A stretch of 64,000 nucleotides of DNA from a virus. Location of the stretch: IMG/VR virus record IMGVR_UViG_3300027782_000032, positions 126,372 through 190,371 of that record; one strand, written 5' to 3'. A program made the position numbers and the translations under genes. The notes beneath the pieces are model-generated. The model was not told where the DNA came from. It did no database searches and saw only the letters and a list, made by a program, of their open reading frames with translations. This document shows, in pieces, positions 6,391-37,019 of the stretch (positions within the stretch are counted from its first letter, which is position 1; every line of letters begins with the position of its first letter).

Positions 6391-6999
6391 CTATGAAGGC
6401 GTTAACCATGTCTTAAAGTCGCCTAAAGCATCTACATCTACTTTTGGATCCTTACTAACTTCAGGTTCTTTAACTCCAGTAAAATAACCTTTGTCGTAAG
6501 TGTTAGTACCTAAGTCGTTACAAACTTGCTCGTACTCTGAGACCTCAATGTCTATTGTTAAGCTGTTAAAGTAAATGTTTATAGTGCCTCTGCATCCTTC
6601 ATTATTAAAATCAGACCTAGAATCAAGATCTATAATTTGAAACAAAAGATCTTCTTTAGCAGCCCATAAATTTACATTAGAGAGTGGAGCTTCAGTTCTA
6701 GTATCTACAGGAGTAAAAGCAATAACGTCTAAAGCCTGCTGCTCAAACTCAGCAGCCAAAGCGCTGCTTATTGAACATGGGCATTTTGTATCATGAGCTG
6801 TAATCGGTCCAATAGGAGAGCTTCTGTATAATAAATCAAAAGAAGTTCTTGTTACACCACAGTGTATGCAAAATACAGCCGTATTATCAAAGTCACTAAA
6901 TGAATCGCCTGAGCCTGAAAAGTCTGTACTAAAACTTCCAATTAAATTGTAAGTCATAGCAGCATGTTCAATATAAGTCATAATATCTTCACTTCTCAT
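6391..6999 (-). CDS. DUF6878-like protein with C-terminal LGDFKTWLTP tag
   Basis: FSGSGDS and DFNNEGCRGTINI resemble the G.GDSG and WENNDGAYG motifs; adjacent to a DUF6915-like gene. Confidence 0.4.
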   Translation of the reverse strand: MRSEDIMTYIEHAAMTYNLIGSFSTDFSGSGDSFSDFDNTAVFCIHCGVTRTSFDLLYRSSPIGPITAHDTKCPCSISSALAAEFEQQALDVIAFTPVDTRTEAPLSNVNLWAAKEDLLFQIIDLDSRSDFNNEGCRGTINIYFNSLTIDIEVSEYEQVCNDLGTNTYDKGYFTGVKEPEVSKDPKVDVDALGDFKTWLTPS

Positions 7000-34018: not shown

Positions 34019-36214
34019 CTAAACAGACGCAGTGGCAGTCGCTGGAACTTTTACTAACGCCTTAGCTGCTTTTAAAGTCTCATCTGAGTTAATAATACTT
34101 AGATACAGCCCGTCACCAAAACTTGCTCCGTACTTGATAAGGTTGTGACCATATATGCTTATATCTACTGAGTTAGCATTCTCAGTAGCTCTAAACAAAT
34201 CTAAGTATTCTTTAGTTTTAACAACAGGAACTCCGTTTACGTCATATCCTACAAATGGAACTGTTATGTCTCCATTTTGTCCATAAGCATACTTATGATT
34301 TTTAGCTTCAGCTGCTGTTATAGCCTTATTATTGTTACTGTCTCCATACTGTTTGTCATACGGATTTAGATGGCTGTACGATAGACAGCTTCCCTTAAAA
34401 GTAAACTTATGTCTTACTGTTGGTGAAAAAGAACAAGCTGGCCTTTCATTAAAGTACTTTATTCTTTTTACCAAAGACTTAGATATTGGGCAGGTTGCTG
34501 GAATAATTATATTAACAAGAGCCCCTGCAGTAGCCTCTATAATGTACTTAGAAAGTCTATATCTTGTGTATATATCGTAAACTAAGGTAGACCCTATAGG
34601 ATTACAAGGAAGCAGTATTACCTTAGCTAAGTTGTAAATTGCATCTTCAGACATAGCAGTGTGCTTTCTAAAGAATCCACAAACTAGATCTAAGCTATTA
34701 GCATCATCGAGCTTAGCTCTTTCAGGTATATCAGAGATATTACCTGGTACTAAGTTCTCAATATCTTCTACAGCTTCAAGTATAGGATTAATATCTTCGT
34801 ATTTAACAGGAATACCTTGAGCTAGTTTAATCATAAATCGTCTGCCACTAGCTTCTGATATTTTAAAGTAATGCTCTCTAAATCTATCAGTCTGTCTATG
34901 CCTGTCAGCGTACTGGTAATCTTTGTACGTCATGTATGAATTAGGCTGGACTTTAAGAATAGGAGCAATAAGTGTGGTAGTTACAAATCCTTTTAAGCCT
35001 TCGCTTAAGCCTGCATCTGCCACTCCTGATGTATCTACAGATTCCATAAAAACAGGTACAGATGTTTCTGCACTGTATTTTCTTATTACGTCTAGGTTTC
35101 TTAAGTTTATAGTGCTTGGTGATACTACTTCAGGGCTGAACATAGTATCATTATTTTGGCAAGCTCTTGACGCGCCTTTTATACGTATACCGCTTTTGCT
35201 TACGTTTATGATCTCGTTAAGCATATCTTCTGAGTAAGGCACACTGCCTTGCTCTACAGCAAGAACCGTATCAAAGTGCGGACCAGGCATAGCATTGTCT
35301 TTATCTTCCATGATTTTATTCATGTGCTTCATAAAAGATATAACTTTCTTTATACGTTCAGCCACATGTTTAGTTCTTTCTAGTCTACCTGCTCCTCTAT
35401 CATAAAGAACTTGAGGTATGTTTGATAAATTATTATGTATGTTCAACGACGTAGTGCTAACTGGCAGCATCTTATGAGCTGAAGAAAGGTTTAGCCTTCT
35501 ATAATTTTTAATAATTATAAACATAGCTTCTGCTAATAGTTCAGGAGTTACCTTTGTAAGGTTTGTAAATATTGTATTGAAATCGTAGTCATCAATATCT
35601 GCTTGAATATCGTCATGATTTCCTTTTAAGTCTAATATTGTAGACGTTATTAGTATTGGATATTGCATTCTTATTAAAGCTGCAAGTAGACTTGCGTCTT
35701 TAAACTCTAAGTCTGGAACTTTAAATAACGAATAATTTGAAGACACAGGCGTGTCTCTAGCTTCATCGTATAGAAAAGGAACTAGATCTTTCTCAAGCCC
35801 TGAGTTTACAGAGTCTAAGATAAGCTCTTGCATAGGGTCTTGTGGAAGACTTAGAGTGTATGTTCTATCAATAGGAGCTAGCGCTGCCGCTACTCTCTTA
35901 GCTTCCATAATAATAAATGCAGCTTCTTTTGTACAACTTCGCACTGTTAATTGATTAGGAAACGGCATGCTAACTATTTCTCTAGCATCATCTTCATTTA
36001 TTTTAAAGTATGATCCAAAGCTCAAGCTTAAATACCTTGAGTTATCTTCTGTAACTTCTTCTGGCTTTAGGTGCACTATCTTATTCAAAAGCTCTAAAGC
36101 GCCTTTGTCAACTTTAGTTATTGCTTCAAAATGATAATCAAAATTAGGCAGCTTACCGTATTTTCTAGCTGTTTTCTTATCCAAGTGTTTGACCAAGTGT
36201 TCTCTAGTTTTCAT
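34019..36214 (-). CDS. large hypothetical protein (731 aa)
   Basis: Long ORF with GGAG RBS; no motif recognised. Confidence 0.75.
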   Translation of the reverse strand: MKTREHLVKHLDKKTARKYGKLPNFDYHFEAITKVDKGALELLNKIVHLKPEEVTEDNSRYLSLSFGSYFKINEDDAREIVSMPFPNQLTVRSCTKEAAFIIMEAKRVAAALAPIDRTYTLSLPQDPMQELILDSVNSGLEKDLVPFLYDEARDTPVSSNYSLFKVPDLEFKDASLLAALIRMQYPILITSTILDLKGNHDDIQADIDDYDFNTIFTNLTKVTPELLAEAMFIIIKNYRRLNLSSAHKMLPVSTTSLNIHNNLSNIPQVLYDRGAGRLERTKHVAERIKKVISFMKHMNKIMEDKDNAMPGPHFDTVLAVEQGSVPYSEDMLNEIINVSKSGIRIKGASRACQNNDTMFSPEVVSPSTINLRNLDVIRKYSAETSVPVFMESVDTSGVADAGLSEGLKGFVTTTLIAPILKVQPNSYMTYKDYQYADRHRQTDRFREHYFKISEASGRRFMIKLAQGIPVKYEDINPILEAVEDIENLVPGNISDIPERAKLDDANSLDLVCGFFRKHTAMSEDAIYNLAKVILLPCNPIGSTLVYDIYTRYRLSKYIIEATAGALVNIIIPATCPISKSLVKRIKYFNERPACSFSPTVRHKFTFKGSCLSYSHLNPYDKQYGDSNNNKAITAAEAKNHKYAYGQNGDITVPFVGYDVNGVPVVKTKEYLDLFRATENANSVDISIYGHNLIKYGASFGDGLYLSIINSDETLKAAKALVKVPATATASV

Positions 36215-36216
36215 TG

Positions 36217-36432
36217 TTACTGCTCTCCTTTAAATTTAGCCAACATTTCCTTGTTGAGTTCTTCCATACGGTTTATCATAGCCTGCTCGTTACCGTCATT
36301 GCCTCTGAGGCATATAGTCCAAGTGTACCCTTTGGTATTCTTGGTAAGTTCTACTTTTGATGGATACTCAACTGTCGGATTGTTCGACAGTTGAGTCTGC
36401 TTGTACATAACGTCTCCATTAATATTGCTCAT
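36217..36432 (-). CDS. hypothetical protein
   Basis: 71 aa; VELTKNTKGYTWTI followed by a helix. Confidence 0.6.
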   Translation of the reverse strand: MSNINGDVMYKQTQLSNNPTVEYPSKVELTKNTKGYTWTICLRGNDGNEQAMINRMEELNKEMLAKFKGEQ

Positions 36433-36936
36433 TTATTGCTCCTTTGATTTTTGTTTGTTTAACTTATCTTTATTCTGCGCAAACCATGCTTTCCACATAG
36501 TTTGACTGGCACAAGCTCCAGCTCGTGTCTTATCTCCAGGTATCGGACCAAAATCTACTGATCCTAACTTTTTATTGCTGTTTGTTAGCACAGCCAAAAC
36601 TATTAGACTTTCCCTGCTTGCCTGTCTAACTAGCTCGCTGTCATCAGCTACTGACTCTATCAGGTCTTCTAGGTATTCATCTCCAAACCTTCTAGCAAGT
36701 ATGCAGCCAGCTGACTTAACTCTGAAGTCAGCTGACTTCATAGCTAGCTCTACCATAGGCTTAGAGTCGGATTTTGATATAGATGCTACCTGCATCTGCA
36801 TGTATCTTATGTCAACCACTGTCAACTTTTTATCAGCCCAACTGGCTGATGACGCTGAGCTGCCTCAGCCTGCACTGCTTTGTTTTGCAGATACAAACAA
36901 TACAACTACGCTAGCTAGTATCAGTCTAGTCAACAT
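36433..36936 (-). CDS. secreted HEAT-like repeat protein with one in-frame TGA (36867-36865): candidate selenoprotein, readthrough product or recent pseudogene
   Basis: GGAGG RBS, then MLTRLILASVVVLFVSAKQSSAG*GSSASSASWADKKLTVVDIRY, in frame with the track ORF 36433-36825; LIESVADDSELVRQASRESL is HEAT-like. Confidence 0.6.
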
Positions 36937-36953
36937 AACAATACCCTCCAATG

Positions 36954-36983
36954 AATCAGGCGGCCTTAAAGGGCCGCCTGATT
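36954..36983. terminator. 12-bp stem-loop just upstream of the TGA-containing gene
   Basis: AATCAGGCGGCC/GGCCGCCTGATT. Confidence 0.6.
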
Positions 36984-37019
36984 TTAGTTAATGGTTTTAC
37001 TTTTACTTTAGGTCTACGT

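Follow-up and report, generated by a model that had tools for sequence, protein, structure and literature searches.

Does a bacteriophage encode a selenoprotein? The question is raised by a small gene on the minus strand of the window, by which we mean the whole stretch of 64,000 nucleotides that was analyzed, i.e. the final 64 kb of an IMG/VR virus record of 190,371 bp (a freshwater phage, estimated to be 92% complete and with a GC content of 42.6%). A Shine-Dalgarno sequence, GGAGGG (36944..36949), lies 7 nt before an ATG (36936-36934) that opens a reading frame of 167 codons. The frame begins with what inspection suggests to be a Sec-type signal peptide of 23 codons including the start (36868..36936), composed of one Arg, a hydrophobic core of 11 residues and then S-S-A-G. 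Codon 24 is an in-frame TGA (36865..36867), the proposed selenocysteine codon, which would specify the second residue of the predicted mature protein. It is followed by a Ser-rich linker (residues 25-39, 36820..36864), a HEAT-like helical repeat domain of seven helices (residues 40-166, 36439..36819) and a TAA stop (36433..36435), with 143 codons open after the TGA. The linker, which forms the unstructured part of a fixed 20-codon stretch between the TGA and a conserved Tyr-Met, also carries a SECIS-like hairpin, AUCAGCC-AGUUG-GGCUGAU (36832..36850), with seven perfect pairs (stem 36850-36844, loop 36843-36839, stem 36838-36832).

The original prediction had regarded this arrangement as a candidate phage selenoprotein or a case of programmed readthrough, and its description of the locus was accurate. 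The GGAGG ribosome site, the ATG, the signal peptide, the TGA, the hairpin and the open frame to the TAA were all located as first described, the frame continues into the ORF of the annotation track (which starts only at TTG 36825, downstream of the TGA), and the perfect 7-bp stem does begin 14 nt after the UGA, with a loop that starts at 21 nt and has G in its second position.

The surroundings of the gene have some features of their own. On the opposite strand there is an ORF of 138 codons (window 36575-36991, +), longer than the annotated 130-codon piece, which a choice of the longest ORF would prefer; it can almost certainly be dismissed as a gene. The gap that separates the ribosome site of the UGA gene from the 242-codon gene upstream contains a 9-bp GC-rich hairpin (CAGGCGGCC / GGCCGCCTG, with a 6-nt loop, window 36957-36980, -), which resembles a terminator but is not followed by a T-run and failed a simple terminator scan. 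In several relatives the gap upstream of the UGA gene (L004:2491-2782, L002:2640-2880 and L010 before position 220) is filled, over 250-300 bp, by degenerate repeats of 5 and 10 nt similar to GGCAAGGCG (TRF periods 5, 10, 20 and 54), which are absent from the window. Downstream, synteny is kept (window 34019-36432; L002 and L004): a protein of 61-71 residues, often with an ATGA overlap, is followed by one of 731-868 residues that has no Pfam or PHROG match.

The null hypothesis formulated together with the prediction was a recent nonsense mutation of TGY to TGA. It is refuted by the conservation of the codon, since each of the 42 related loci for which the DNA was read, representing about nine clades, has one in-frame TGA immediately behind the signal peptide. 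The close relatives comprise 25 loci from viral and metagenome collections, which fall into two clades with about 50% identity between them; without exception they have a Shine-Dalgarno sequence, an ATG or GTG, a signal peptide of 22-24 codons ending in (S/K)-A-G, the TGA, and the same frame beyond it. In both clades a Ser/Asn-rich linker with a constant length of 20 codons leads, always in frame, to the conserved domain. The distant relatives (L028-L035 and L037), which came from a profile search of 1.8 billion representatives, contain exactly one in-frame TGA each, at the same place. The flanking signals are also shared: AGGAG, GGAGG or GGGAG is present 6-8 nt before ATG or GTG in 19 of 19 distinct relatives, and in 13 of 16 clade representatives the signal peptide shows the pattern [A/S/L/T]-x-A followed by one residue and then by U or C. 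At the nucleotide level, comparison of the region with 50,697 phage records by blastn gave no match.

In the databases the family looks different. The initial protein search returned relatives called as 120-136 residues only, which indicates that gene callers begin after the TGA, and upstream of P0011 and P0012, two of the proteins called in truncated form, both the signal peptide and the TGA are present. Several other public proteins have a 'W' after the signal peptide, and this residue could be reproduced only by a translation with TGA read as Trp, so that it must be an artefact of code-4 gene calling. The public calls that begin after the UGA or put Trp there (code 4) include P0013, P0020, P0022, P0027, P0066, P0067, P0089 and P0002-P0012.

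If the gene callers were right, the locus would consist of two cistrons, of which the first encodes a leader or membrane peptide of 23 residues that ends at the TGA and the second a HEAT-like protein that starts at TTG 36825 or at the ATG of the Tyr-Met pair, with the hairpin as a regulatory element between them. This agrees with the annotation and with the preservation, in clades 1 and 2, of an ATG some 20 codons downstream of the TGA. However, in other clades the same ATG is replaced by Ile, Val or Thr, and none of the downstream starts is preceded by a Shine-Dalgarno sequence, whereas in every locus the upstream ATG is equipped with a strong one. Furthermore, the length of the linker varies among clades from 21 to over 40 codons, and yet the frame is maintained between the two parts throughout, with no other stops. 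The n-h-c layout and the AxA site of the upstream peptide are those of a cleavable signal peptide and are sensible only if there is a passenger to be exported. We consider two separate cistrons very unlikely.

The code-4 calls could, on the other hand, be taken at face value, as a sign that TGA is reassigned throughout the genome (code 4 or 25), or the codon could reflect a broken gene or a sequencing error. Against an error speaks the presence of the TGA in independent assemblies from many samples and clades, and against reassignment speak the other genes on the contigs called with code 4, including the neighbors of the UGA gene, which are free of internal TGA. In the phage record, greedily chosen ORFs cover 93.2% of the sequence under code 11 and 93.0% under code 4, so reading TGA as sense does not raise the coverage. 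TGA terminates 30 of the 214 ORFs, and the ATGA overlaps at 6996, 10526 and 39106 were verified; the prediction's view of TGA as an ordinary stop elsewhere in this genome, without genome-wide recoding, is thereby borne out. The record contains no tRNA or tmRNA genes, hence no suppressor tRNA, and its 190 kb include no second coding-looking gene interrupted by TGA; another TGA-joined frame (G000 124722-126398) turned out to be merely two adjacent genes. Moreover, in L002, L004 and L010 the UGA gene itself stops at TGA, which means that within one mRNA the same triplet is passed by the ribosome at one place and ends translation at another. Genome-wide reassignment was therefore rejected, and this whole group of explanations, a broken gene and a sequencing error included, is extremely unlikely. 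It should be added that selA, selB and selD were searched for in the phage record and none was found, so that any selenocysteine insertion must use the machinery of the host.

The hairpin downstream of the codon was compared with the published model of bacterial SECIS elements (PMC13188914), which specifies 3-9 nt for the loop, 4-16 bp for the stem, a distance of 16-37 nt from the UGA, an MFE <= -7.5 and a G among the first two nucleotides of the loop, with G or U usually coming next. The window hairpin agrees with the model in every respect (5-nt loop AGUUG, 7 bp, 21 nt, dG -9.6 kcal/mol), and the same is true of those in clade 1, L034, L038 and L060. By way of background, of the 6,345 TGA trinucleotides in the genome 1.1% precede a hairpin compliant with the model (dG <= -7.5) and 0.43% one that is as stable as -9.6 kcal/mol; the string TGA..CCAGTTNGG was found once in the 190-kb genome.

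The comparison of relatives argues that this structure is conserved at the RNA level. The stem occupies the same columns in 19 distinct close sequences, and two of its pairs (33:45 and 34:44 in alignment A2) covary, with the changes AU/CG/UG and AU/GC/GU. The covariation score was reached by none of 500 column shuffles, and in a control in which the partner was shifted by one to three columns the pairing collapsed. Since the compensatory changes alter the encoded residues (Ala/Thr, Ala/Val, Trp/Ser), the RNA is conserved at the expense of the protein. The loop is always [A/G]GU[U/C] across the clades (AGUUG, AGUUC, AGUUU, AGUU, GGUCA and GGUC), and the sequence CCAGUU(N)GG is found in each of the three possible codon phases (as AGT TGG in the window, as CAG TTT in L031 and L033, and as CCA GTT in L037 and L029); consequently, a protein motif cannot account for it. 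In clade 2, synonymous divergence amounts to 0.13 in the signal peptide and linker versus 0.46 in the domain, and this low value near the UGA points to an overlapping constraint at the nucleotide level. The pN/pS ratio of the linker is 0.5-0.9.

The hairpins of some relatives are less regular. In clade 2 the stem has 5 bp and an energy of -4.3 kcal/mol, so that the geometry fits the model but the energy misses -7.5 unless a non-conserved lower stem is counted; the hairpin of L017 consists of 4 bp, and L029 has its AGUU hairpin at a distance of 53 nt from the UGA, with another hairpin in the interval. In most clade-2 loci (e.g. L011, L019 and L028) the segment UGAGCA, which includes the UGA, can pair with UGCUCA about 45 nt downstream; such pairing, absent from L017, L023 and L025, would enclose the apical hairpin in a second, lower stem, an arrangement known from two-stem SECIS elements. 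An Rfam search at E <= 10 returned no SECIS family and chance matches only.

The weakness of the clade-2 hairpins as SECIS elements would be easier to understand if the UGA were subject to programmed readthrough, i.e. if a near-cognate tRNA (Trp, Cys or Arg) decoded it at low frequency, with the hairpin as a stimulator or pause site, to give a little exported protein without selenium. Conservation of the UGA, of the frame and of a downstream structure would be expected in this case too, the phage has no Sec genes, and there is a phage precedent in the A1 protein of Qbeta, a product of programmed UGA readthrough. There, as in the gene studied here, the ribosome passes a phage UGA to make a longer protein. 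However, both Qbeta products are functional and no SelB-type hairpin is present, whereas termination at the UGA of our gene would release a bare 23-residue signal peptide, so there would not be two useful products. It is also relevant that the GU of the loop is kept in about nine clades and in three codon phases, while a roadblock to the ribosome needs no loop sequence. The remaining evidence on this point comes from the residues that replace the UGA and from the bacterial homologues.

The homologues were inspected for TGA, Cys or Trp at the site, a check that had been proposed with the prediction; either TGA or Cys was found and a true Trp never. Relatives that lack the TGA have a cysteine at the corresponding place, residue 2 after the AxA cleavage site, where the equivalence of Sec and Cys is positional, relative to the predicted cleavage site, and the linker aligns poorly. 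The best bacterial matches comprise TGA forms (L055, L060, L061 and L064) and Cys forms (L054 and L056-L058); in Gemmataceae the former read AEA-G-U (L055, L060) and the latter A(S/R/F)A-Q-C. Two adjacent cysteines (CC) are found in L036 and P0015, and C-x4-C in P0016, P0017 and P0021 compares with U-x4-C in L031, L033 and L061. In L036 the second Cys is located 21 residues before the domain Tyr, which equals the spacing of the U in the window. Apart from these Cys forms, no relative has Trp, Arg or another sense codon one step from TGA at the site. The absence of Trp and Arg, and in particular of any change from TGA to TGG in sequences whose adjacent codons vary, argues against decoding by a near-cognate tRNA.

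The predicted position of the selenocysteine near the mature N-terminus, specified with the help of the SECIS-like hairpin, is thus supported by the TGA and Cys homologues, by the covarying hairpin and by the use of TGA as a stop elsewhere. The suggestion that this position might be that of a lipobox (SAG-C) fared worse. In the TGA forms, position -3 is occupied by S, K, Q, E, W or Y rather than by L, V or I, several forms have E, D or Q at position -1, and the Cys-form relatives have AxA-Q-C. The pattern [LVI][ASTVI][GAS]C is not found in these sequences, and the lipoprotein reading was abandoned.

The bacterial homologues also bear on the identity of the host. The 75-kb contig that encodes P0012 bears genes of planctomycete type (PSCyt/PSD domains, HXXSHH, rhodanese), and an identical protein is present in a Gemmataceae MAG (L040, JBDNHI010000098.1); L040/L038 and the window protein share 42% identity over 137 residues. 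A profile scan of genome contigs with the close alignment A1 gave no match, and a scan with alignment A4 found the Gemmataceae MAG. In G001, the Gemmataceae genome with the closest homologue, selB (406.8 bits), selA (541.6), selD (347.6) and tRNA-Sec (66.7) all score over the curated cut-offs. SelB exceeds its cut-off in all four genomes with TGA forms, in three of the four with Cys forms and in 90 of the 101 Gemmataceae sampled, and complete sets of genes for Sec insertion have been reported in Gemmata obscuriglobus (PMC4807772). The Sec machinery is therefore seen in the bacterial carriers of the homologues and not in the phage. The loop is GGUC in all bacterial TGA forms, which in this respect resemble the selD SECIS of G001. 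This selD gene (L050, G001:C80:22840-23769) encodes a selenoprotein in its own right: its single in-frame TGA lies in C-A-G-U-A-G-K, and its SECIS loop, GGUCU, starts 32 nt after the UGA.

The profile of the family matched 135 of 201 Gemmataceae genomes (E <= 1e-5), mostly weakly and inside longer HEAT proteins, and 1 of 401 genomes in a phylum-wide sample, in which fewer candidates per genome were scored. When all ORFs around the Gemmataceae copy were compared with the phage by tblastn, only the UGA gene was found in common, which implies that the bacterial copy is not part of a prophage related to the phage. The genes around the bacterial homologues (isopropylmalate/isocitrate dehydrogenase, a flavoprotein, PP2C and a peptidase of family S51) give no functional hint. 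The GC content is 41% at the G001 locus versus 42.6% in the phage, and 26-32% in some related contigs, unlike known Gemmataceae. The sharing of the family with Gemmataceae suggests a Sec-competent planctomycete as the host, possibly a low-GC member of Gemmataceae like G001, for which gene sharing is the only ground. We infer that the SelB of the host reads the AGUU-type loop of the phage, from which the GGUC loops of Gemmataceae differ at loop positions 1 and 4.

That the bacterial homologues reside in genomes with complete Sec machinery, and have the same type of loop as the selD gene of their own genome, is again not what would be expected of readthrough. Taken together with the loop conservation, the useless short product and the nature of the replacing residues, this makes programmed readthrough, which the original prediction had kept as an alternative, unlikely and much less likely than selenocysteine insertion.

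We propose, with a probability that we put at about 0.8 and on the strength of comparative sequence evidence, that the UGA is read as selenocysteine, directed by a SECIS and with the use of host machinery. Selenocysteine insertion is favored because it accounts for the invariant UGA, for the conserved GU loop at a fixed distance and its covarying stem, for the maintenance of the frame across linkers of varying length, for the Cys in relatives that lack the TGA, and for the occurrence of homologues in Sec-competent bacteria. According to this proposal, translation from the ATG at 36936 would yield a single precursor of 167 residues, in which the UGA at codon 24 would be decoded by the SelB and Sec-tRNA(Sec) of the host, recruited by the hairpin 14 nt downstream; the latter, situated within the coding sequence, would play the part of a SECIS of bacterial type. 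Cleavage by signal peptidase I would follow at the predicted site, after the Ala at -2, and the mature product would be an exported HEAT-like protein with Sec as its second residue, on a flexible, Ser-rich tail. The contribution of the phage would be limited to the UGA and the hairpin, with the Sec genes provided by the host.

What such a protein might do has to be judged from its fold. In the AF2 model, built with an alignment of 17 sequences (mean pLDDT 83), residues 1-38 are disordered and seven helices are found at 40-166. The nearest structures in the PDB are alphaRep/HEAT-like repeats (E 0.1, probability 0.94-0.98), and with Foldseek no PDB entry matched at E <= 0.001. In comparison with the Pfam family HEAT_2 (PF13646), the window protein scores 18.1 bits (E 0.0034), under the gathering cut-off of 27.7 bits, and its bacterial homologues score 35.5-45.8 bits; the look-alikes in the ESM Atlas are exclusively small HEAT_2 proteins, commonly from Planctomycetota. 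PHROGs yielded nothing for the protein or for three neighbors, and Pfam nothing for six neighbors. A HEAT-like scaffold is not a known redox fold, and the family members have no universal partner Cys, both of which count against the selenocysteine reading. The protein may serve as a binding scaffold that is exported and presents a reactive selenol or thiol on its flexible N-terminal tail. One may go further and suppose that the placement of the UGA, slow to decode and dependent on SelB, precisely where the signal peptide ends makes both synthesis and export depend on the selenium status of the host and pauses the ribosome just before the signal peptide emerges, and that the selenol at residue 2 serves as a warhead that forms a selenenyl-sulfide with a target in the host envelope or binds a metal on it; as a joint claim, this is a speculation that we regard as rather doubtful.

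The proposed gene can be placed among known systems. The archetype of a bacterial SECIS that is located in the ORF and bound by SelB is that of E. coli fdhF. With bacterial SECIS genes in general, the phage gene shares the in-frame UGA, a hairpin in the coding region, G-U at loop positions 2-3, the existence of Cys homologues and the use of TGA as a stop elsewhere; it differs from them in residing in a genome without Sec machinery, in having the loop AGUU(N) instead of GGUC, and in that the Sec would be found at the start of an exported protein rather than in the active site of an oxidoreductase. The Gemmataceae homologues (L040, L055, L060, L061 and L064) have the same succession of signal peptide, AxA, one residue, TGA, hairpin and HEAT_2 domain, but their loops are GGUC, some of them reach 220-390 residues with further HEAT repeats, and their neighbors are housekeeping genes.

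Among viruses, selenocysteine is known from the glutathione peroxidase homologues of molluscum contagiosum virus and fowlpox virus, and its insertion is attributed to cells and to a small number of eukaryotic viruses. The eukaryotic viral selenoproteins resemble the proposed phage case in that the gene with the UGA-Sec codon is viral and the insertion machinery is supplied by the host. However, they have a SECIS in the 3'-UTR and the fold of a redox enzyme, whereas the phage gene has a bacterial-type SECIS and a scaffold that is not an enzyme. The occurrence of UGA-Sec in viruses is mentioned in passages of one published paper (PMC8310308). No published bacteriophage selenoprotein was found in the literature searched, and the text of a 2026 review of prokaryotic selenoproteomes (PMC13188914) contains neither HEAT nor phage, virus or Planctomyc.

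The public gene calls for the family are systematically in error, being truncated at the UGA or given a Trp under code 4. If selenocysteine insertion is the true explanation, the gene would encode a phage selenoprotein, and a phage family that keeps a UGA and a SECIS without machinery of its own would indicate that phages can exploit the recoding systems of their hosts; the supply of selenium could then affect infection. The protein would also define a new family of selenoproteins, exported and HEAT-like, with Sec or Cys at mature residue 2, and common to Gemmataceae, whose selenoproteome has been little studied. Should the idea of conditional export and of a selenol warhead prove true as well, it would reveal a class of phage effectors that work through selenium chemistry.
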